From IMG/VR virus record IMGVR_UViG_3300002092_001784, positions 64,001 through 128,000 of that record: a stretch of DNA of 64,000 nucleotides. One strand, 5' to 3'. Origin of the DNA: a virus. Taxonomy: Duplodnaviria > Caudoviricetes. Positions within the stretch are counted from its first letter, which is position 1. Every line of letters starts with the position of its first letter. This document shows positions 5,991 to 51,001 of this stretch, piece by piece. A program made the position numbers and the translations under genes. The notes under the pieces were generated by a model. The model had not been told where the DNA came from. It saw only the letters and a program-made list of their open reading frames with translations, and did not search any database.

Positions 5991-6385
5991 GTAGAATTGA
6001 ATTTAACTTAGTAGAATGTAATACGGAATATTGGGAGTTTGTTAGGGAACTTCGTAATGATAGTAGAGTGATTGGTGGTTTTATAGAAACTACATATATT
6101 ACACCAGAAATGCAAAACGAATATATGAAACTACATCAACATGAATATCGTATTGGTTTACTCTATGGAAAGCCTGTTGGTTATGTTGGTGTAATTGAAG
6201 ATGATATTCGAGTCTGTACCCATCCGAATTATCAGAAATTAGGAGTTGGTAAATTTATGATAAATGAAGCTATGAAGATATGGCCAACTGCGTTTGCGAA
6301 AGTAAAGATTGATAATACTGCAAGTCTAAAATTGTTTGAATCTTGCGGGTTTACACAAAAATATGTAATTTTAACAAAAGATTGA
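5975..6385 (+). CDS. GNAT acetyltransferase
   Basis: YQKLGVGK acetyl-CoA motif and NTASLKLFESCGF; next to an aminotransferase. Confidence 0.75.
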   Translation: MYMELGRIEFNLVECNTEYWEFVRELRNDSRVIGGFIETTYITPEMQNEYMKLHQHEYRIGLLYGKPVGYVGVIEDDIRVCTHPNYQKLGVGKFMINEAMKIWPTAFAKVKIDNTASLKLFESCGFTQKYVILTKD

Positions 6386-31623: not shown

Positions 31624-32002
31624 GGGGCTGACAGGTATTGACAGCGTATGACGAGGGTATATTGATGCAAGCGGGGTTAGATGGAAACCCTTGAACACCT
31701 ATCAAACAATAAAAGGCGTTAATAACTACGCATTAGCAGCGTAACCCATAGGGTTAACATAGCTTGGGGTCGTTGAACATATAACCTCGCAACAGAAGTT
31801 CATAAGGTGATGATACTACCAGCTAAGTGTATTGTGGGTGCAGGCGGAGCTCATATAAAATAATTCCAGCCAAGTTGTTTATCGGTGGGTTTCTCACATA
31901 CATCAAACCGTTTTATTTGTCAGTAAGAAACAACTGAATAAGCTTGTGAACGATGTGTATTTAAGCTATGTCTGGACGAGGATTCAACTTCCTCCAGCTC
32001 CA
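31624..32002 (+). ncRNA. ssrA: tmRNA; tag ORF 31715-31744 encodes GVNNYALAA
   Basis: 5' GGGGCTG pairs with CAGCTCC-A (G3.U70 alanine identity); T arm GAGGA-TTCAACT-TCCTC; tag ends in YALAA. Confidence 0.95.
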
Positions 32003-32081
32003 CGAAAATCAATTCAAGCTCGCCAATATCTAACTACTGCATCAAAACTGTGGATAGAGGTGAGCTTGATTTTTGTATTAA

Positions 32082-36367: not shown

Positions 36368-36469
36368 GGTCGGGTGGCGAAATTGGTAGACGAATAATCT
36401 CTTACATATAGAGATAAGAATAAGGCTGCAAGGCAGTACTTCATGCAGGTTCGAGTCCTGCCCTGATCA
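36368..36469 (+). ncRNA. tRNA-Leu-like RNA with non-canonical anticodon region (copy 1)
   Basis: GGTCGGG/CCTGATC-A, D arm TGGCGAAATTGGTAGACG, T arm GCAGG-TTCGAGT-CCTGC. Confidence 0.7.
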
Positions 36470-36872: not shown

Positions 36873-36996
36873 GATCAGGTGGCGGAATTGGTAGACGCTT
36901 ACAATATGATAAGGTGAACGAGAGGAGAACCGATAAGAATCAACCGCTTTTATATTATTCAGCTTCACTTAGCAGGTTCGAATCCTGCCCTGATCA
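36873..36996 (+). ncRNA. tRNA-Leu-like RNA with a 73-nt insert replacing the anticodon and variable arms (copy 2)
   Basis: GATCAGG/CCTGATC-A, D arm TGGCGGAATTGGTAGACGC, T arm GCAGG-TTCGAAT-CCTGC. Confidence 0.7.
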
Positions 36997-37696: not shown

Positions 37697-37728
37697 TTTG
37701 GAAATGTGAAAAATTATTCGTATCTTTG
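37697..37728 (+). promoter_or_regulatory. Bacteroidota promoter upstream of tRNA-fMet
   Basis: TTTG-N20-TATCTTTG. Confidence 0.75.
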
Positions 37729-37772
37729 TATAAATTAAAAAACTATATACTTATATATATATTAAAACATAC

Positions 37773-37922: not shown

Positions 37923-37994
37923 TTAACATTTTTTAACTAAAAAAGATTTGGAAATTAAAAATATTTTTCGTATCTTTGTAGTATAGTTCTTTGA
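37923..37994 (+). promoter_or_regulatory. Promoter plus boxA-like site
   Basis: Partial TTAAC repeat, TTTG-N20-TATCTTTG, GTTCTTTGA at 37986. Confidence 0.75.
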
Positions 37995-38001
37995 GATGAT
38001 T

Positions 38002-38153: not shown

Positions 38154-38180
38154 ATTATTTTTAATAAAATTACAAAAAGA

Positions 38181-38242
38181 TTTGGAAATGTGAAAAATTT
38201 TTCGTATCTTTGTAAAACAAAATTAAAACATACGTTCTTTAA
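38181..38242 (+). promoter_or_regulatory. Promoter plus boxA-like site upstream of the GOLLD-like RNA
   Basis: TTTG-N20-TATCTTTG; GTTCTTTAA at 38234. Confidence 0.75.
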
Positions 38243-38259
38243 TAGTATTTAAGATTTAA

Positions 38260-39212: not shown

Positions 39213-39251
39213 CACTTAGTTATGGTTCTATTAATTAAAAACCAAAAATTT

Positions 39252-39319
39252 GCGGTTTAAGTGTTACGGTAGCACAGGAACATTCCAGTTTCAAGATGGG
39301 TTCGACTCCCAAAACCGCT
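39252..39319 (+). tRNA. Atypical tRNA-Gly(TCC)
   Basis: GCGGTTT/AAACCGC-T; GGAAC-ATTCCA-GTTTC with a 6-nt loop. Confidence 0.55.
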
Positions 39320-39355
39320 CTAAGATAAATTCAGTTCAGTAATGAACTAAAAATC

Positions 39356-39458: not shown

Positions 39459-39496
39459 AAAATATTAAAAAAATAAAAACATAATACTTATATACA

Positions 39497-39622
39497 ATGA
39501 AAACCTTAGCATTACATACAAATTTGTTTAATTTACCACTCTATAAAAGCTGGTCGAATATTTGTGTGTTTAATTCAAGCATTCGCAAGAGTTCAGTTGA
39601 GGGAAGTAATTTATTTACGTGA
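39497..39622 (+). CDS. Leader peptide 1 (41 aa), candidate attenuator of the downstream tRNA array
   Basis: MKTLALHTNLFNLPLYKSWSNICVFNSSIRKSSVEGSNLFT; 39593-39603 is complementary to the terminator 5' arm. Confidence 0.7.
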   Translation: MKTLALHTNLFNLPLYKSWSNICVFNSSIRKSSVEGSNLFT

Positions 39623-39660
39623 CGTATTAGAAGATAAAAGAATACAAACTAACTAAATAG

Positions 39661-39694
39661 ACCCTCTACTGATAAACAAAGTAGGGGGTTTTTT
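39661..39694 (+). terminator. Attenuator terminator 1
   Basis: ACCCTCTACT/AGTAGGGGGT 10-bp stem followed by a T run. Confidence 0.85.
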
Positions 39695-39709
39695 CGTTTG
39701 TAACAATTT

Positions 39710-40586: not shown

Positions 40587-40678
40587 GGAAGTATAAATCC
40601 CAGATGGACTAAGGGAGCCGGTCTTGAAAACCGTAGGTCGCTAAACACGGCGTGTAAGTTCGAGTCTTACTACTTCCG
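40587..40678 (+). tRNA. tRNA-Ser(TGA)
   Basis: CCGGT-CTTGAAA-ACCGT; long variable arm; G73. Confidence 0.9.
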
Positions 40679-41003: not shown

Positions 41004-41010
41004 ACAATAC

Positions 41011-41092
41011 ACATTCGCTCATTGGCGTGACCAGCCGGCTCCAACCCGGTAATGCGTAAGCGTGGTTGAGGGTTCGAATCCCTACGAATGTG
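41011..41092 (+). tRNA. Atypical tRNA-Trp(CCA) with long variable arm
   Basis: ACATTCG/CGAATGT-G; GCCGG-CTCCAAC-CCGGT; extra arm ATGCG-TAAG-CGTG. Confidence 0.65.
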
Positions 41093-45570: not shown

Positions 45571-46131
45571 ATGAAAATTTTATTCCTTGACCACGATGGA
45601 GTAATTTGTTTGTCCCCACAGTGGGGAGGTCGTTTCAAAAACAAAGAAGGACTTGATTTGATGTTTGACAGATTTGATGATAAAGCAGTAAAGGTACTGA
45701 ATAAAATCATTGAAGAAACCGATTGCGAAATTGTGGTATCATCCGATTGGAGATTGTTCGCTACATTAGAGCAAATGCAAGAATTGTATCTTATCCGTGG
45801 TATCTTAAAATCACCGATTGATTATACACCACTAACCGCAGATACTGATGTAATACCTGATGGGTTTACATTTGATAGGTGGGAATGGGAAGTACAGCAA
45901 AGTAGGTGTTTTGAGATTAAAACTTGGTTAAAACGCCATACTGAAATTACGAATTGGGTGGCAGTTGATGATATGAATATGAGTTCAGATTATAAGTTTG
46001 AATACGATTCACATAAGCAGTTGTGGGGGTTGGATAATTTTGTAAGGACACCGATTTCAAATCAAGGAATTAAACAAACCGGAATTAAGGATAAAATTGT
46101 TAAAATACTTAATCAAACTCAAAATATGTAA
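45571..46131 (+). CDS. HAD-family protein (HAD_SAK_2-like)
   Basis: ILFLDHDGVI, VVSSDWR, R..EI..WL and WVAVDD motifs. Confidence 0.82.
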   Translation: MKILFLDHDGVICLSPQWGGRFKNKEGLDLMFDRFDDKAVKVLNKIIEETDCEIVVSSDWRLFATLEQMQELYLIRGILKSPIDYTPLTADTDVIPDGFTFDRWEWEVQQSRCFEIKTWLKRHTEITNWVAVDDMNMSSDYKFEYDSHKQLWGLDNFVRTPISNQGIKQTGIKDKIVKILNQTQNM

Positions 46132-46193
46132 TAATTTAACGGAACTTTATTATTGGTTGGTATATTTATAGGTGTAATAAAATACCTATAAAG

Positions 46194-47276
46194 ATGAAAA
46201 AACCCAAAGTTCTGTTTATTCTTAAAAAAAGACAAGATTACGGTGAACCACACCCAGCGCATATTGGGTTGAGTACTGGTTTATATAATTCGGCAACATT
46301 TGTTAACGATATGCTAAATGATGCAGGAATCCATTCACATATTGAAGTGGTAGTTGACAATAATGATATAGATAGAGAAGTTACTAAACACAAACCAACT
46401 CATGTTATTATTGAGGCGTTGTGGGTAGTACCATCTAAATTTGATGTGTTGTGTAAATTACACCCAACTGTAAATTGGATTATAAGGCTTCATAGTGAAC
46501 TTCCATTTTTAGCAAATGAAGGAAACGCTATGGATTGGATTGGATGTTATATACAGCATAGAAACGTACATATTGCAGTAAATGCCCCACGTACTATGAA
46601 TGATATTAAACATTATCTTCGTATCAAGATGGGCTGGTTAAATAATATGGTGAATAAGAAAGTAATTTATTTACCAAATTTTTATCCTCAGAAGTACAAA
46701 GTAAAGAAATTCAATGTGAATGATGATACTATTGATATTTCTTGTTTTGGGGCAGTTAGACCGTTTAAGAATCATCTTAATCAGGCTATGGCAGCAATTA
46801 AGTTTGCTGACAAGATTGGTAAGAAGTTGAGATTTCATATCAATACCGGTCGTTTTGAAATGAAAGGTGTATCAGTCTATACTAATTTGGTTGGATTGTT
46901 TGATCACCTATCAGATAGAGGACATAAGTTAATTAACCATGAGTGGACACACCATGATGAATTTTTGAAAATCTGTTCTCAAATGGATATTGCAATGCAA
47001 TGTTCATTTTCTGAAACTTTTAATATAGTTGCCGCAGATGAGATTTCTCAGGGAGTACCATTGGTAGCATCTAAAGAGATAGTTTGGTCGAGTTCTTTGT
47101 TTAATGCAAATCCAACAGATACGAAGTCTATTACCAATGCATTGATGCTGACATATAAGATGCCGTGTTTGAATGTAAAATGGAATAAACTTGGTTTAAC
47201 AACTTATACAAATAAGACTCGGAAAATATGGGTTGATTATTTCAAAAAACAAAACCCATTCATTCTTAACAAATAA
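46194..47276 (+). CDS. GT-B glycosyltransferase-like protein
   Basis: FGAVRPFKN and SFSETFNIVAAD (E-x7-D) motifs. Confidence 0.7.
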   Translation: MKKPKVLFILKKRQDYGEPHPAHIGLSTGLYNSATFVNDMLNDAGIHSHIEVVVDNNDIDREVTKHKPTHVIIEALWVVPSKFDVLCKLHPTVNWIIRLHSELPFLANEGNAMDWIGCYIQHRNVHIAVNAPRTMNDIKHYLRIKMGWLNNMVNKKVIYLPNFYPQKYKVKKFNVNDDTIDISCFGAVRPFKNHLNQAMAAIKFADKIGKKLRFHINTGRFEMKGVSVYTNLVGLFDHLSDRGHKLINHEWTHHDEFLKICSQMDIAMQCSFSETFNIVAADEISQGVPLVASKEIVWSSSLFNANPTDTKSITNALMLTYKMPCLNVKWNKLGLTTYTNKTRKIWVDYFKKQNPFILNK

Positions 47277-47312
47277 AATAGTGATTTTTTAATTTTTGAA
47301 TACTTATATACG

Positions 47313-47417
47313 ATGAAGAACACAATAAACACATACCCGCAACCTAGTAGACCAACAACCGTTGGGACAGGAAGAGGTACGCAAAATTACATAGTTCGGA
47401 ATCGCAAATTAGATTAA
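47313..47417 (+). CDS. Leader peptide 2 (34 aa), candidate attenuator of the Arg/Pro/Thr/Gly/Gln tRNA array
   Basis: MKNTINTYPQPSRPTTVGTGRGTQNYIVRNRKLD; 47392-47400 is complementary to the terminator 5' arm. Confidence 0.75.
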   Translation: MKNTINTYPQPSRPTTVGTGRGTQNYIVRNRKLD

Positions 47418-47440
47418 ATAAAAAACATTCATATAATTTG

Positions 47441-47480
47441 AAAAATCCGAGCTAAACATAAAGAGTTCGGATTTTTTATT
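47441..47480 (+). terminator. Attenuator terminator 2
   Basis: AAAAATCCGAGCT / AGTTCGGATTTTT followed by a T-rich tail. Confidence 0.85.
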
Positions 47481-47580
47481 TTAAGATATTAACACCATCG
47501 TTCTTTGGCATAACGGAGAAAAATAATTATGGAACAAGGCATTATTATCGATATAGATATAATGGTGAATAGTGTTATAT

Positions 47581-47653
47581 GGCCCTATGATGTAATGGAT
47601 TAGCATCAGTCCCTTCTAAGGATTTCGTTAGCGTTCGAATCGCTATGGGGCTA
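47581..47653 (+). tRNA. tRNA-Arg(TCT)
   Basis: AGTCC-CTTCTAA-GGATT. Confidence 0.9.
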
Positions 47654-47688
47654 CTAAGTTATTAAGTGTAAACTAAAAAACAGAAATT

Positions 47689-48120
47689 ATGAAATTATTA
47701 AAAATAGTATTGATATGTATATTACTATCGCTAATACCTGTTCAGTTTAAGGCTGATATTGCAGATTTGGTTGTGTTTGAAAATATATTAAAGAAAGAAC
47801 AGAAACCTCGTATTGTAACAGTAACAACATATACTGTGAATCGTAAAAAGTATACCGCTAGTGGATTTGAGGTAACTCCGGATAATCCGGCAGCAGAACG
47901 AATTATCGCAATTAGTAGGGATTTGAAGAAACGATTTGAATATGGTGAGCGTGTACTGGTTACTGGTATTGGAGAATATAGTGGGGTTTATATTATAAGG
48001 GATTTGATGGGTAAAAAGTGGAAGAACCGAATAGATATTCTAATTGATCCGGAAGATGAACATACAAAATTGTTTAATGCAAGATTGTATCGAATGGATG
48101 CTGAAGATTCAGAAAAGTAA
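47689..48120 (+). CDS. 3D-domain (peptidoglycan hydrolase-like) secreted protein
   Basis: Signal peptide; T.Y...TASG...IAISRD...D......RIDIL. Confidence 0.75.
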   Translation: MKLLKIVLICILLSLIPVQFKADIADLVVFENILKKEQKPRIVTVTTYTVNRKKYTASGFEVTPDNPAAERIIAISRDLKKRFEYGERVLVTGIGEYSGVYIIRDLMGKKWKNRIDILIDPEDEHTKLFNARLYRMDAEDSEK

Positions 48121-48128
48121 AAGTATAT

Positions 48129-48201
48129 AGCGAGTGAGGTGTAATGATTTTGCATACCGCATTTGGGATGCGGGGGAGGAGTTTGATTCTCACACTTGCT
48201 A
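48129..48201 (+). tRNA. tRNA-Pro(TGG)
   Basis: CCGCA-TTTGGGA-TGCGG; weak T stem. Confidence 0.8.
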
Positions 48202-48229
48202 CAAAAAAATAAAAACGAAGTAGTTATAT

Positions 48230-48589
48230 ATGGAAAAACTAACATATAAAACCGATGGGGACATGAGTGAATACTTCGAAAGATTATCCGATATAATCAA
48301 AAAAGGGAAAACACAGGAAGAAGTGGTATCAATGATTCTTAATGTGGTAAACGCCAAGAAAAAGTTGGTGAAGTATAAAGGTGGCAAATGTGAATTATGC
48401 GGATACAATCGAAGTATAAATGCATTACATTTTCATACTCGTAACAAAGATGGTAAAGATTATATCATAAGTGGCAAAACTTTATCAATGGATACTCTTA
48501 AAAAGGATGTGGATAAATATGTATTGGTTTGTTCAAATTGCAGAGTAGAAATAAATGAAGGAATTGTTGATATTAGTTTGGAAAGTTGA
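48230..48589 (+). CDS. Degenerate HNH-like protein
   Basis: KGGKCELCGY...ALHFH...VCSNC. Confidence 0.65.
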   Translation: MEKLTYKTDGDMSEYFERLSDIIKKGKTQEEVVSMILNVVNAKKKLVKYKGGKCELCGYNRSINALHFHTRNKDGKDYIISGKTLSMDTLKKDVDKYVLVCSNCRVEINEGIVDISLES

Positions 48590-48608
48590 AATATTTTTCG
48601 TATCTTTG
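48577..48608 (+). promoter_or_regulatory. Bacteroidota promoter upstream of tRNA-Thr
   Basis: TTTG-N20-TATCTTTG. Confidence 0.75.
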
Positions 48609-48623
48609 TAAAATTAAATAAAC

Positions 48624-48708
48624 GCCTCTATCGTATAGTGGTCGATTACAGCTGATTTGTAATCAGCATTTCGAAAGAAACTCGTCGGTTCGAATCCGGC
48701 TAGGGGCT
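48624..48708 (+). tRNA. tRNA-Thr(TGT) with long variable arm
   Basis: GCTGA-TTTGTAA-TCAGC; extra arm TTTC-GAAA-GAAA. Confidence 0.85.
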
Positions 48709-48784
48709 CGGGGTAACTCATATTGAGAACCCGTTCCGATAACATACCCAGAGTGGTTACTTAAACGAAGTGTTATCAAATATT

Positions 48785-48860
48785 GCGAATGTAGCTCAAT
48801 TGGTAGAGTACGGCGTTGCCAACGCTGAGGTTGTGAGATCGTAGCTCATCATTCGCTCCA
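48785..48860 (+). tRNA. tRNA-Gly(GCC)
   Basis: CGGCG-TTGCCAA-CGCTG; CCA encoded. Confidence 0.92.
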
Positions 48861-48973
48861 TAAGGGTTTCCCGCTTTAAGGTGAAGGACACGCGGGCGGA
48901 GACGTTCAGAATTAGTCATTAAACAATTCAAAACCTTAAGTCTATGATGGGAGGGCCCTACCCATTAAATTTT

Positions 48974-49046
48974 GCGGAAGTAGCTCAATTGGTAGAGCGC
49001 CTGCCTTCCAAGCAGGGGGTTGAGGTATCGTACACCTTCTTCCGCT
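48974..49046 (+). tRNA. tRNA-Gly(TCC)
   Basis: CCTGC-CTTCCAA-GCAGG. Confidence 0.92.
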
Positions 49047-49102
49047 CCGGTCACTTTTTTGTAAGTTAGAGATGAAAGTTCGATTTTATTATATTTATAT
49101 GT

Positions 49103-49789
49103 ATGAAACGATGCAAAAAATGTAATATAGAATTTGAACCTCAACGAGGATTGTTGAATTATTGCTCATTAGCATGTAGGAACAGTAGAAATTGGACGGT
49201 TGCTGATAAATTAAAAAAATCAATTAGTGCTAAAAATAGTGCTAAAGTTATTGAATCAAACTCTAAATTATCTGATAAATTAAAAGAATATTGGTCGGAT
49301 GAAACTAAAAGATTGGCTCAATCATATCGTATAAAAAATATATGGACTGATGAAATGAGAAAAATTTATTCATCCAATCGAATGGGAGTTAAGCATTCAG
49401 CAGAAACAATAGAAAAAATAAGAACTATTCAAAAACAAAGATTAAAGGATAACCCAATGCTGCATCCTAATAGATTATGTGCTGGTATTAATGAAAGTTA
49501 TCCCGAAAGAATGATTAGGGAATATTTTGAAAATATTGGATATGTAAATGGTATTGATTTTATTCAGCAATTTGAATATAAAGGTTATTATGTAGATTTT
49601 TATATACCAAAAACTAATATTTGTATAGAAGTTGATGGTGAATATTGGCATGATAGTTCAAATCAAAAAGAAATTGATAGAGAAAATGAAATAAAGAAAA
49701 CATATAAATTATATAGATTATCCGCAAAACAAGTATTGAAAAAAGAATACGAAGATTTATTAAAAAATATATTTTCAGAATTGAATTAA
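49103..49789 (+). mobile_element. Free-standing homing-type endonuclease (Zn finger, NUMOD3-like, DUF559/Vsr-like)
   Basis: CKKC...CSLAC, KHSAETIEKI and YYVDFY...IEVDGEYWH; inserted between tRNA genes. Confidence 0.7.
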
Positions 49790-49886
49790 TATAAAAACTC
49801 AAGTACCCGTACAGCTAGAGTAGGGTTAAATTAGATACGATTTCTCAGTTTCAATAACACGCTGGAAGTAGAATGCTTGAGAATAT

Positions 49887-49957
49887 TGCCCGATGGTGTA
49901 ACGGTAGCACCCATCACTTTGACTGATGTAGTTTAGGTTCGAATCCTAATCGGGCGA
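49887..49957 (+). tRNA. tRNA-Gln(TTG)
   Basis: CATCA-CTTTGAC-TGATG. Confidence 0.92.
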
Positions 49958-49970
49958 CTAAAATAGTTTT

Positions 49971-50528
49971 ATGAAAAATTGGAAGAAAATATTAATAATC
50001 ATTGCGGCAATTGGATTAGCTGCATTTGTAATTTGGAAAATAGTAACATATACAGAACCGGAGTTTCACCCAGAGCCGTTTCCAATCAATAATACAGTTG
50101 CCAATCTAACAGGTGGTAAGACTTATTTGGATACAATAGTTCATCTGGCATTAAACGCATTGGATTTTAAGGGATTGGTTGTTGTTATTCAACCATTAAC
50201 ACCTGCAATGCAGTCCGCATTTTCTCAAACATTGGAACTTAAAGCTCAGATTAAACCGGATAGTGATAGTACACTGTTTCATTTGTATATTGGTGATTTA
50301 AGTAAATCGGAAGCAATTGGGGTAGTATCGCATGAAATGATACATTTGAAACAATATTATCTAAAGGAATTAGTAGTTAAAAACGATACTGCTTATTGGC
50401 AAGAATATCCAATACCTATTACATCTGTGGAATACGAAGCAAGGCCGTGGGAAACTCAAGCTTTTAATTTGAGTAAAGATTTAGAATGGATATTAAAACA
50501 TAAACTGTATAATTTATACACAAAATAA
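49971..50528 (+). CDS. Membrane-anchored HExxH metallopeptidase-like protein
   Basis: N-terminal TM helix; SHEMIHL..Q and PWETQA motifs. Confidence 0.7.
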   Translation: MKNWKKILIIIAAIGLAAFVIWKIVTYTEPEFHPEPFPINNTVANLTGGKTYLDTIVHLALNALDFKGLVVVIQPLTPAMQSAFSQTLELKAQIKPDSDSTLFHLYIGDLSKSEAIGVVSHEMIHLKQYYLKELVVKNDTAYWQEYPIPITSVEYEARPWETQAFNLSKDLEWILKHKLYNLYTK

Positions 50529-50533
50529 CCGAT

Positions 50534-50989
50534 ATGAAATTTAGAAAAATGTTTCAATCTACCGAATTTGAAGTAGTTGATTATGTGAAGGAATATTTGG
50601 ACGAACATGAAGATATTGAAATTCTAATCGGTTGTGATTCACAAAATCGTTCATCCGAAACCGTATATGCAGTTGTAGTTGCAATGTACAGACCTGGGAA
50701 GGGAGCACATATAATTTTCCGCAAATGGAAAACACCAAAGGAATTTAACAGACCAACTCGGTTATTAAATGAGGTATGGTTTTCAGTTGAAGTTGCGGAA
50801 TTATTAAAAAATGCAGGTGTTAAGAAGCCGAAATGGATAGATATAGATATTAACCCGGACCCTCGTTATAAATCAAATGAAGTATTTCGTCAGGCTGTTG
50901 GGCTGGTGGAAGGAATGGGTTATAGCTGCAGATTCAAATCATTAGGCCCAATTACAACGTATACCGCAGATTCATTAGTAAAATCTTAA
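50534..50989 (+). CDS. RNase H-like YkuK (DUF458) protein
   Basis: IGCDSQ, RLLNEV and IDIDIN motifs. Confidence 0.8.
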   Translation: MKFRKMFQSTEFEVVDYVKEYLDEHEDIEILIGCDSQNRSSETVYAVVVAMYRPGKGAHIIFRKWKTPKEFNRPTRLLNEVWFSVEVAELLKNAGVKKPKWIDIDINPDPRYKSNEVFRQAVGLVEGMGYSCRFKSLGPITTYTADSLVKS

Positions 50990-51001
50990 AAAAACAATTA
51001 T

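Follow-up and report, generated by a model that had tools for sequence, protein, structure and literature searches.

Leader-peptide attenuation has been described for amino-acid operons, among them those with the trpL, hisL, leuL, thrL and pheL leaders, and the ilvGMEDA and ilvBN leaders are multivalent, responding to several amino acids. In Escherichia coli it also governs a gene of the translation apparatus, pheST, where attenuation through the pheM leader responds to tRNA charging. Phage tRNA arrays, known from work on T5, vibriophages and mycobacteriophages, are thought to compensate for loss of host tRNAs or for tRNA-cleaving defences. Studies of these arrays, as far as we found, describe tRNA content and benefit and no codon-matched leader that controls transcription; our literature search returned no description of leader-peptide attenuation applied to tRNA genes.

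Here we analyzed a window of 64,000 nt, positions 64,001-128,000 of IMG/VR record IMGVR_UViG_3300002092_001784, from the 266-kb genome of a giant freshwater phage (Duplodnaviria; Caudoviricetes); coordinates are window-based. The stretch at 47290-49958 is likely to be a trp-type ribosome-mediated (leader-peptide) transcription attenuator, which would sense the supply of the phage's own tRNA set. Its control elements, as predicted from sequence, are the following.

47290-47311, + strand: upstream control region, with an imperfect Bacteroidota-type -7 box, TAATTTTTG, at 47290-47298, then the 12-mer ATACTTATATAC at 47300-47311.
47313-47417, + strand: leader ORF of 34 codons, leader family B (ORF list; family-profile search).
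47322-47384, + strand: sensor block, codons 4-24, with 16 of 21 codons read by the downstream tRNAs.
47392-47400, + strand: antiterminator (region 2), a copy of the terminator 3' arm inside the ORF, ending about 14 nt before the stop codon.
47441-47482, + strand: intrinsic terminator (regions 3 and 4), with a 13-bp stem, a 10-nt loop and a T-run.
47500-47511, + strand: boxA-like element GTTCTTTGGCAT, by resemblance to the boxA consensus.

In the amino-acid operon attenuators, a translated short ORF with regulatory codons precedes the genes, hairpins 1:2, 2:3 and 3:4 exclude one another, the last being an intrinsic terminator, and a stalled ribosome selects the antiterminator. The phage element has the ORF, the codons, the terminator and the predicted 2:3 and 3:4 alternatives in common with them and, as proposed here, a stalled ribosome would likewise select the antiterminator. 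Unlike in those operons, the regulated genes are tRNAs rather than enzymes and are phage-encoded, and the antiterminator lies inside the ORF, upstream of its stop codon. The phage leaders also sample 5 to 20 amino acids (6 to about 24 anticodon species), each once or a few times, whereas the amino-acid leaders carry runs of one residue. The pheST system differs in controlling a synthetase, in sensing a single amino acid and in belonging to a cellular operon. T-box riboswitches, like the phage element, read tRNA status and choose between terminator and antiterminator, but they bind uncharged tRNA directly and have no ORF; an Rfam scan of 46000-51000 in E-value mode gave no match to the T-box or any other cis-regulatory family. 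The arrangement further recalls rrn-type boxA/Nus antitermination and the lambda nut sites in that the boxA-like GTTCTTTGRCAT heads an untranslated RNA operon and is conserved in relatives; in contrast to those systems, it is located downstream of the regulated terminator, where only transcripts already past that terminator would be subject to it. With the phage tRNA arrays studied previously, the locus shares a setting in which demand-driven tRNA expression would pay off.

The array downstream of the control region contains the following features.

47581-47654, + strand: tRNA-Arg(UCU) (ARAGORN default; not listed by Rfam).
47689-48120, + strand: 143-aa ORF inside the array (phrog_21574, no function assigned).
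48129-48202, + strand: candidate tRNA-Pro(UGG), a weak call (ARAGORN -ps90 only; not by Rfam).
48230-48589, + strand: HNH endonuclease ORF, 119 aa (PHROGs phrog_2255, E = 3e-18).
48577-48608, + strand: predicted internal Bacteroidota-type promoter, with TTTG at 48577-48580, 20 nt, then TATCTTTG at 48601-48608 (consensus motif).
48624-48709, + strand: tRNA-Thr(UGU) (ARAGORN default, Rfam).
48785-48860, + strand: tRNA-Gly(GCC) (ARAGORN default, Rfam).
48974-49048, + strand: tRNA-Gly(UCC) (ARAGORN default, Rfam).
49103-49789, + strand: DUF559/homing-endonuclease-like ORF, 228 aa (Pfam PF04480, E = 4e-8; PHROGs).
49887-49958, + strand: tRNA-Gln(UUG), the last tRNA of the array (ARAGORN default, Rfam).

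The earlier note had counted six tRNAs. Five of these (Arg, Thr, Gly, Gly and Gln) are called by ARAGORN at default settings, with Rfam confirming all except Arg, and the sixth, Pro(UGG), is a weak call that appears at the relaxed threshold only. In nearly all relatives tRNA-Pro(UGG) comes after tRNA-Arg(UCU), and the candidate in the window occupies the matching position. An Rfam match to DUF2693-RNA over 47500-47654 was rejected, as it scored 24 bits against a threshold of 81 bits. The tRNAs do not form a clean operon, since they are interrupted by three ORFs, one of unknown function and two encoding endonucleases.

The 34-codon ORF proposed as the leader is present at 47313-47417 and matches the family-B profile (hmmsearch E = 1e-16, the window sequence being among the profile seeds). 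It has at least 17 distinct homologs of 33-36 codons, in which the ORF is kept open despite indels. In their alignment the third codon positions are the most variable, with third-position change in excess; the leader peptide has no Pfam match. The cognate codons of the sensor block are AGA (twice), CCN (three times), ACN (six times), GGN (three times) and CAA (twice). The claim that 14 of the 16 leader residues 9-24 are Arg, Pro, Thr, Gly or Gln was borne out, and these are in cognate codons. Such codons make up 23.6% of the phage's long ORFs, and 14 cognate codons in 16 were reached by 0 of the 53,266 16-codon windows of those ORFs. Over the whole leader ORF, 16 of 33 codons are cognate (null 0.24, p = 0.016) and all six tRNA species are represented (joint p = 0.0018). 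The cognate codons cluster toward the start, with 15 of 22 among the codons at least 10 nt before the antiterminator and 1 of 11 in the tail. Counting against the attenuator reading, the non-cognate codons include four Asn, two Tyr, two Ile and two Val codons, which belong to the tRNAs of the other array.

For comparison we used 80 related jumbo-phage loci, from which 46 distinct modules were scored. These loci contain four unrelated families of leader ORFs (A, B, C and D) with a common layout of short ORF, in-ORF antiterminator, terminator and tRNA array; the family-D leaders, in L070-L085, were recognized by inspection, the T-run there being below 5. Across the 46 modules, the fraction of array tRNA species with a cognate codon in the leader (recall) is 0.96 and the fraction of leader codons that are cognate (precision) is 0.79. 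The observed F1 of 0.86 compares with 0.66 when arrays are shuffled among all modules and with 0.81 when they are shuffled within families, and neither set of 20,000 permutations contains a value as high (0/20,000 in each), though the modules are phylogenetically related and the permutation p-values overstate their independence. Upstream of the antiterminator the cognate fraction is 0.79, vs. 0.37 in the tail, in family B, and 0.86 vs. 0.60 in family A.

Leader composition also co-varies with the array. Within families, 48 of 56 informative tRNA species are richer in cognate leader codons when the tRNA is in that array, with 8 changing in the other direction. Whether Val and Thr codons are in leader A or in leader B depends on which of the two arrays has tRNA-Val and tRNA-Thr. 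In L002/L128, which have no downstream tRNA-Gln, the leader has no Gln codon. In L109, where array A has given up its Asp and Glu tRNAs to array B, leader A is devoid of codons for these two amino acids, each of which has a single codon in leader B. The array B of the window has lost Leu, Asn, Tyr, Val, Met and Ser(GCU), and its leader core has changed from RPLNNGNGYGVQ to RPTTVGTGRGTQ. Codon choice extends to the isoacceptor level, as Arg is AGA in leader B and mainly CGN in leader A, and Ser codons are a conserved AGT in leader B and mainly TCN in leader A. Exceptions are the family-B short-array loci L120 and L101, which keep codons for tRNAs not found downstream.

These patterns bear on whether a real attenuator of this kind might instead read general translation capacity or amino-acid starvation, with the codon match reflecting nothing more than the phage's preferred codons. 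A stall would report a shortage of charged tRNA from any cause, and phage tRNAs usually match the frequent codons of the phage. Random windows of the phage's own ORFs nevertheless fall short of the observed match, with joint p ranging from below 5e-5 to 0.007 for representatives of all four families. Moreover, the two leaders of a genome split the code exactly as the arrays do: in all 11 two-leader genomes both leaders match their own array much better than the other one, and codons follow a tRNA that changes array. We thus consider this alternative unlikely.

The intrinsic terminator reported by the earlier note is confirmed, with a stem at 47441-47453/47464-47476 that begins 24 nt past the leader stop codon and a T-run to 47482. 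The 191-nt stretch containing it (47300-47490) has a minimum free energy of -36.4 kcal/mol (z = -4.5, with none of 200 shuffled sequences reaching this stability), and the hairpin is kept with compensatory changes in 16 relatives. A consensus terminator scanner misses it only because the loop limit of that scanner is 8 nt. The 9-bp pairing of TAGTTCGGA (47392-47400) with TCCGAGCTA (47446-47454) likewise holds, with eight Watson-Crick pairs and one G.U pair. This antiterminator duplex, at -11.6 kcal/mol, is matched by 0.3% of shuffled upstream regions (p = 0.003) and by 1% of genome windows. AGTTCGGA occurs in only seven copies in the genome, both strands included, and two of these are the antiterminator and terminator copies, 71 nt apart. 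Within family B, GTTCGG is conserved in two reading frames, as TGT-TCG-GAT in most members and as GTT-CGG in the window, L002 and L109.

In the relatives the in-ORF segment tracks its own terminator: the segments pair with their own terminators at -10.6 to -13.0 kcal/mol vs. about -7 with those of other families, and family C contains the matched antiterminator/terminator variants GTTAGAGG/CCTCTAAC, GTTAAGGG/CCCTTAAC and TCAGGG/CCCTGA. The gap between the antiterminator end and the stop codon measures 10-18 nt, with 14 the typical value, in almost every module of families B and C, and 6-7 nt in D. The stop-codon position in the window, a spacing conserved in B and C, fits a terminating ribosome that blocks 2:3 but not 3:4. 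A start-proximal region 1, which overlaps the start codon, is complementary to the antiterminator in all four families (-8.2 to -9.6 kcal/mol vs. -4.9 to -7.1 for shuffles, with matched variants); in the window this 1:2 pairing is weak, consisting only of GAAC/GTTC and CGAT/ATCG at about -6 kcal/mol. RNAalifold also drew a small in-ORF hairpin (columns 57-70 of A6), the loop of which is too short in several members.

A point against the attenuator is the stability of the terminator, which greatly exceeds that of the 9-bp antiterminator; the switch must therefore be kinetic. The same disparity would suit a terminator that leaks constitutively, or a hairpin for processing or stability, either of which would fix the ratio of upstream to downstream RNA with no ribosome coupling of the alternative pairing, and bacterial tRNA operons are generally not known to use attenuation. 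Such an element would not, however, account for an ORF that stays open through indels in all modules with third-position change in excess, for cognate codons confined upstream of the antiterminator, for the conserved stop spacing or for the overlap of region 1 with the start codon, and we find it very unlikely. A chance ORF and chance complementarity beside a terminator might be suspected in a single AT-rich locus judged post hoc, for which whole-ORF precision alone gives p = 0.016. This explanation is barely credible, as it is contradicted by conservation and covariation in 46 modules of four families and no 16-codon window in the genome's long ORFs equals the sensor block.

The flanking signals set limits on how tightly the array could be gated. 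The 12-mer ATACTTATATAC ends 1 nt ahead of the leader ATG and has exactly two copies in the genome, each directly before a leader ORF. At the equivalent upstream position, family-B relatives contain TAnnTTTG and then ATACTTATTAAAACG; the local promoter of the window departs from the TAnnTTTG consensus, which counts against the attenuator reading. The boxA-like site, GTTCTTTGGCAT, is present at 47500-47511 as noted earlier, and GTTCTTTGACAT is found ahead of the first tRNA in 15 of the 16 modules of family B as well as in family D. GTTCTTTGGCAT is a candidate boxA by resemblance to the consensus, and binding of NusB/NusE is putative. Similar elements, at about 37986 and 38234, follow other promoters of the window.

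The internal promoter at 48577-48608 is a near-copy of three window promoters, at about 37700, 37946 and 38180, and the caveat raised earlier stands, as it is predicted to be able to transcribe the Thr, Gly, Gly and Gln tRNAs independently. Strict dependence on the attenuator would therefore apply only to Arg(UCU) and Pro. In addition, a consensus promoter, together with a boxA, separates the terminator from the first tRNA in 11 of the 16 modules of family B, which weakens exclusive control; there the switch could only modulate expression. In family C and most family-A modules the first tRNA starts 8-24 nt past the terminator stem, and in family D 29-35 nt past it; no promoter motif was found between stem and first tRNA in families C and D or in most A modules, and those arrays therefore need read-through.

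The promoters past the terminator, the one at 48577 included, and the conservation of the peptide family would also be expected if the ORF were an independent micro-protein gene, with an ordinary terminator or insulator ending this unit and the upstream genes, and the tRNAs were transcribed from their own promoters with no sensing. That arrangement gives no reason for leader codons to follow the content of the array, both inside a family and from one family to another, for GTTCGG to persist in two frames, or for all four unrelated families to place a copy of the terminator 3' arm at a constant spacing from the stop. Further, families A, C and D have no room or motif for a post-terminator promoter, and the peptide matches nothing in Pfam. 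We judge it highly improbable.

The genome contains a second leader, of family C, ahead of another tRNA.

39484-39696, + strand: candidate sister attenuator, leader family C, with the 12-mer ATACTTATATAC, ORF, antiterminator, terminator and tRNA-Asn.

Its parts are a 41-codon ORF (39497-39622), an in-ORF antiterminator (39594-39604) and a terminator (39659-39691), with tRNA-Asn starting 18 nt past the stem and a codon match of joint p below 5e-5. A third tRNA cluster (Glu, Glu, Asp and Ala; G000 148157-149353) directly follows an 87-codon ORF and has neither leader nor terminator, so that not every array is gated.

There are no cultured close relatives, the best marker-protein match having 36% identity and lying in uncultured huge phages, and a DNA search with 46900-47700 against GenBank phages gave no match. 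In L051, the nearest relative when judged by marker protein, the locus examined has no leader-2 module, and searching the DNA of the L002-L005 records for leader 1 yielded only noise. The 37 stretches from a gapped-pattern scan of IMG/VR were chance matches in GC-rich contigs, except for the L002 contig. Matches by tblastn to the leader C terminus in L058 and L061 were spurious, as the stretch has no ORF and resembles the GOLLD region of the window. The phage is present in six sequencing runs, all of them DNA and none RNA, and the contigs of four runs show no variants.

Anatomy, conservation, RNA-arm covariation and co-variation of leader codons with array content were all computed here, and together the two covariation results and the permutation test favor the attenuator suggested by the earlier note. 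No homolog was seen with the terminator but without the ORF and pairing; in at least 17 distinct homologs of the module the terminator is accompanied by both the ORF and the in-ORF copy. We infer that the ORF is translated, in which direction the switch works and what its physiological trigger is, namely host tRNA depletion, tRNA-cleaving defences or starvation. In the model, transcription would enter the leader from the weak local promoter or from upstream genes, and a ribosome would translate the 34-codon ORF. If the Arg-AGA, Pro, Thr, Gly and Gln codons were decoded smoothly, the ribosome would cover TAGTTCGGA and come to sit at the stop codon about 14 nt on; with TAGTTCGGA covered, pairing with the terminator 5' arm would not occur, the terminator, 24 nt past the stop, would fold and transcription would end. 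Slow decoding of any sensor codon would stall the ribosome upstream, leaving TAGTTCGGA free to pair with the emerging 5' arm and block the terminator, such that RNA polymerase would continue past the boxA-like site and transcribe tRNA-Arg(UCU), tRNA-Pro and what follows. The outcome would be a demand-driven, self-limiting supply of the tRNA species sampled by the leader.

Somewhat less confidently, we favor the view that, in large phages, codon-matched leader ORFs sense tRNA supply as a general class of element not described before. Each leader would carry about one codon per array tRNA, the array would be transcribed only upon slow decoding of one such codon, for example after loss of host tRNAs or under tRNA-cleaving defences, and the leader would evolve in step with tRNA gain or loss. 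If so, tRNA genes would join amino-acid operons and a single synthetase operon as targets of leader-peptide attenuation, and the range of sensed amino acids would grow from one to three up to all twenty. From sequence alone, the leaders would reveal how a phage groups its tRNAs into regulatory units, and as compact modular sensors of decoding speed at chosen codons they could be reused as reporters. Phages would then regulate their tRNA sets by demand and not constitutively, which bears on what phage tRNAs are for, whether codon compensation, replacement of degraded host tRNAs or escape from anticodon nucleases.

The leader 2 module contains the ORF, terminator, antiterminator and boxA-like site that the earlier note had described, and its principal elements on the given strand are as follows.

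47313-47417: leader 2 ORF, 34 codons
47441-47476: terminator hairpin, 13-bp stem and 10-nt loop, with a T-run to 47482
47500-47511: boxA-like site GTTCTTTGGCAT
48577-48608: internal consensus promoter

The 191 nt from 47300 to 47490, which include the terminator, fold with -36.4 kcal/mol (z = -4.5). Within the ORF, TAGTTCGGA (47392-47400) is a near-copy of the terminator 3' arm and can form a 9-bp pairing with the 5' arm (-11.6 kcal/mol), a duplex strength equalled by just 0.3% of shuffles and 1% of genome windows; the 8-mer AGTTCGGA has just 7 genome copies, both strands counted. The array was said to hold six tRNAs, five of which, Arg(UCU), Thr(UGU), Gly(GCC), Gly(UCC) and Gln(UUG), are called by ARAGORN, while Pro(UGG) (48129-48202) is called at a relaxed threshold only; an Rfam scan of the array lists neither the Pro nor the Arg tRNA. 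A 143-aa ORF, an HNH endonuclease and a DUF559-type endonuclease interrupt the array. As proposed, 14 of the 16 codons at residues 9-24 of leader 2 are cognate to the downstream tRNAs. In the phage's long ORFs, codons of this kind account for 23.6% of the total, and a count of 14 is attained by none of their 53,266 16-codon windows. Over the whole ORF, 16/33 codons are cognate (p = 0.016) and all six tRNA species are represented (joint p 0.0018).

A search with a 360-aa neighbouring protein led to L002, a 310-kb phage whose longer tRNA array is preceded by a homologous ORF of 36 codons, a terminator and a boxA-like site. A second search, with the 151-aa protein downstream of the array (50534-50989), yielded 80 loci with 10-kb flanks, among whose small ORFs a profile search found at least 17 distinct homologs of leader 2, here family B. 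Their common layout is a TAnnTTTG promoter, ATACTTATTAAAACG and an ATG, an ORF of 33-36 codons with (A/T)GTTCGGA inside, a terminator of the form ACCCGAAC...GTTCGGG plus T-run, usually a second promoter, and a boxA-like GTTCTTTGACAT preceding an array in the order Leu(UAA), Arg(UCU), Pro, Asn, Leu(UAG), Tyr, Met, Val, Gly, Thr, Gly, Gln, Ser(GCU). Scanning for a small ORF followed by a terminator and a tRNA revealed three more families, A, C and D, unrelated in sequence. The family A array consists of Ala, Ile, Phe, Lys, Trp, Arg(ACG), Cys, His, Met, Asp, Ser(UGA) and Glu, and its leader core represents every residue of that array, the rare Trp, Cys and His included. The array of family D lacks Thr and Gly, and the sensor part of its leader has no Thr or Gly codons. 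Family C leaders have 40-53 codons, and each precedes a single array with about 25 tRNAs; some of these leaders, such as that of the related locus L058, contain all twenty amino acids. The window holds a family C member, leader 1 (39497-39622), in a sister attenuator.

39484-39696: sister attenuator; 41-codon ORF, in-ORF antiterminator and terminator, with the same 12-mer before the ATG
47300-47311 and 39484-39495: motif ATACTTAT(T/A), also in relatives L102, L116, L118 and others

The leader 1 ORF is rich in Leu, Asn, Phe, Lys, Ser, Ile, Trp, Cys and His, and tRNA-Asn begins 18 nt past its terminator stem. The ATACTTAT(T/A) motif adjoins all leader families, its position relative to the -7 box varying. 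In family A modules (L102 near 4780, and others), the terminator is followed first by an Ala(UGC) tRNA gene, often overlooked by ARAGORN at default settings and beginning 9-11 nt past the stem. The more distant relatives L003 and L004 (about 6053-6266) carry, in their tRNA region and adjoining a homing endonuclease, a 71-codon ORF that ends in 13 His codons. In other relatives (L107 near 12039, L127 near 12054, L087 and L080), ARAGORN reports suppressor-type tRNAs (anticodon CTA, one TTA), which hint at stop-codon reassignment or suppression.

Across 46 distinct modules, at least one cognate leader codon is present for 96% of the array anticodon species, and 79% of leader codons are cognate. 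The earlier note had suggested a permutation test of this match, and the match holds: the observed F1 of 0.86 compares with a mean of 0.66 when arrays are shuffled among all modules and 0.81 when they are shuffled within families, and in either case 0 of 20,000 trials attain it. In all 11 two-leader genomes, each leader is fitted much better by its own array than by the other. In the window, precision against the own versus the other array is 0.48 versus 0.33 for leader 2 and 0.72 versus 0.12 for leader 1 (recall 1.0, joint p <5e-5). For representatives of each of the four families, comparison with windows drawn at random from the phage's own long ORFs gives joint p values from <5e-5 to 0.007. 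Because the modules are phylogenetically related, the p-values of all these tests overstate independence; the four families are mutually independent, and swaps within one genome are not subject to phylogenetic artefact.

Leader composition also co-varies with array content among the relatives, a further check proposed at the outset. Within families, 48 of the 56 informative tRNA species are represented by more cognate codons in a leader when they belong to that leader's array. For example, one clade has tRNA-Val and tRNA-Thr in array B and another has them in array A, and Val and Thr codons are enriched in the matching leader. In L002/L128, where tRNA-Gln lies upstream, the leader has no Gln codon, and in L109, where Asp and Glu have relocated to array B, leader A is without Asp and Glu codons and leader B contains one codon for each. 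The leader 2 array of the window has lost Leu, Asn, Tyr, Val, Met and Ser(GCU), and the family core RPLNNGNGYGVQ is replaced by RPTTVGTGRGTQ. Codon choice tracks the isoacceptor as well: leader A, with Arg(ACG) and Ser(UGA) downstream, encodes Arg mainly by CGN and Ser mainly by TCN, whereas leader B, with Arg(UCU) and Ser(GCU) downstream, uses AGA and a conserved AGT Ser codon. Exceptions are the loci L120 and L101, where the leaders still sample tRNAs that are absent from the short arrays.

The in-ORF segment is constrained as RNA. GTTCGG is invariant in family B, where most members read it in the frame TGT-TCG-GAT, whereas the window, L002 and L109 have GTT-CGG; its retention in two frames therefore places the constraint on the RNA rather than the peptide. 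In every family the segment is complementary to its own terminator 5' arm at -10.6 to -13.0 kcal/mol, compared with about -7 kcal/mol against terminators of other families, and segment and arm occur in matched variants in family C, so that the covariation sought between terminator and antiterminator is found. In predicted folds of the leaders from which the terminator is left out, the segment is paired to the region of the start codon; this pairing exceeds shuffles family-wide and has matched variants, such as GAACATAA/TTATGTTC and GAATTTGA/TCAAGTTC. With the start-proximal region, in-ORF segment and two terminator arms numbered 1 to 4, the predicted pairings would amount to the classical 1:2, 2:3, 3:4 scheme, 1:2 being weak in the window. 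In nearly all family B and C modules the segment ends 10-18 nt, typically 14, before the stop codon, and the terminator stem starts about 20-28 nt past it; thus, a ribosome at the stop codon would sit between regions 2 and 3, leaving regions 3 and 4 free. Cognate codons cluster where a stalled ribosome would leave the in-ORF segment free (cognate fraction 0.79 in the upstream zone versus 0.37 in the tail in family B; 15/22 versus 1/11 codons in leader 2). The ORFs are probably translated, since the reading frame stays open through indels in all modules, third codon positions are the most variable and second the least (32-43% of single-base codon differences are synonymous), and the codons correspond to the anticodons, which we consider the strongest argument for translation.

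Expression of the arrays would in many modules require read-through. The first tRNA begins 8-24 nt past the stem in family C and most family A modules, and 29-35 nt past it, behind a boxA-like site, in family D. No promoter motif was found between terminator and first tRNA in families A, C and D, and thus these arrays would be expressible only through the terminator. In 11 of 16 family B modules a TAnnTTTG promoter follows the terminator, whose T-run contains the -33 TTTG of that promoter; here read-through would add to basal promoter output. The leader 2 module of the window retains the boxA-like site and has no second promoter, and its tRNA-Arg(UCU) and tRNA-Pro therefore appear dependent on read-through. 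The Thr, Gly, Gly and Gln tRNAs can additionally be served by the internal promoter, a caveat raised in the earlier note that stands.

The phage record (266,153 bp, 34% G+C; window, bases 64001-128000), to which DNA in several freshwater metagenomes is near-identical, encodes about 25 tRNA genes along with a tmRNA and a GOLLD RNA. Its recurring promoters take the form TTTG / TAnnTTTG, which we take to be the Bacteroidota sigma-A consensus, in agreement with the Bacteroidota host guessed at first.

31624-32003: phage tmRNA, tag peptide VNNYALAA
38724-39131: GOLLD RNA (Rfam RF02032, 275 bits versus a 150-bit threshold)
45571-46131: 186-aa HAD_SAK_2 protein (Pfam E = 6e-23)
37700-37731, 37946-37998, 38180-38245 and 48577-48608: four near-identical Bacteroidota-type promoters (GATTTGGAAAT...TTCGTATCTTTGTA)
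36368-36469, 36873-36996, 39251-39320, 40587-40677 and 41010-41092: tRNA-like genes whose anticodon regions are odd or enlarged or whose variable arms are long

A boxA-like GTTCTTTGAGA or GTTCTTTAATA lies within 25 nt after two of the four promoters, ahead of structured RNAs. The GOLLD RNA has its own promoter and a boxA-like site ahead, and the first leader and tRNA array downstream. The five tRNA-like genes have low or tRNA-Sec-like Rfam scores and are reported by ARAGORN as "???" or at relaxed thresholds only. HAD_SAK_2 is a domain of "Swiss Army Knife" RNA-repair proteins, and its gene, placed between both tRNA arrays, may indicate a tRNA-repair context. Outside the window, at 147840-149353 of the full record (G000:C1), a third tRNA cluster (Glu, Glu, Asp, one of unassigned type, Ala) directly follows an 87-codon ORF with a leader-like promoter and 5' UTR, but without a terminator.

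A T-box is excluded for the leader 2 region by the Rfam scan. The proposed mechanism matches the one used by leader-peptide attenuators of the trp/his type and by the related multivalent ilv leaders, and the pheST leader illustrates that genes of the translation apparatus can be under such attenuation. In contrast to the known attenuators, the phage leaders are phage-encoded, target tRNA genes, carry the antiterminator inside the ORF, and sample between 6 and about 24 anticodon species, each with one or a few codons; target, breadth, in-ORF antiterminator and phage setting are new. No description of such tRNA-gene control was found in the full-text literature searched, the coverage of which excludes most subscription journals. 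The comparative tests proposed in the earlier note, all computational, thus support its attenuator interpretation: a leader-peptide attenuator mechanism, whose trigger and benefit to the phage we infer, probably gates the phage tRNA genes.
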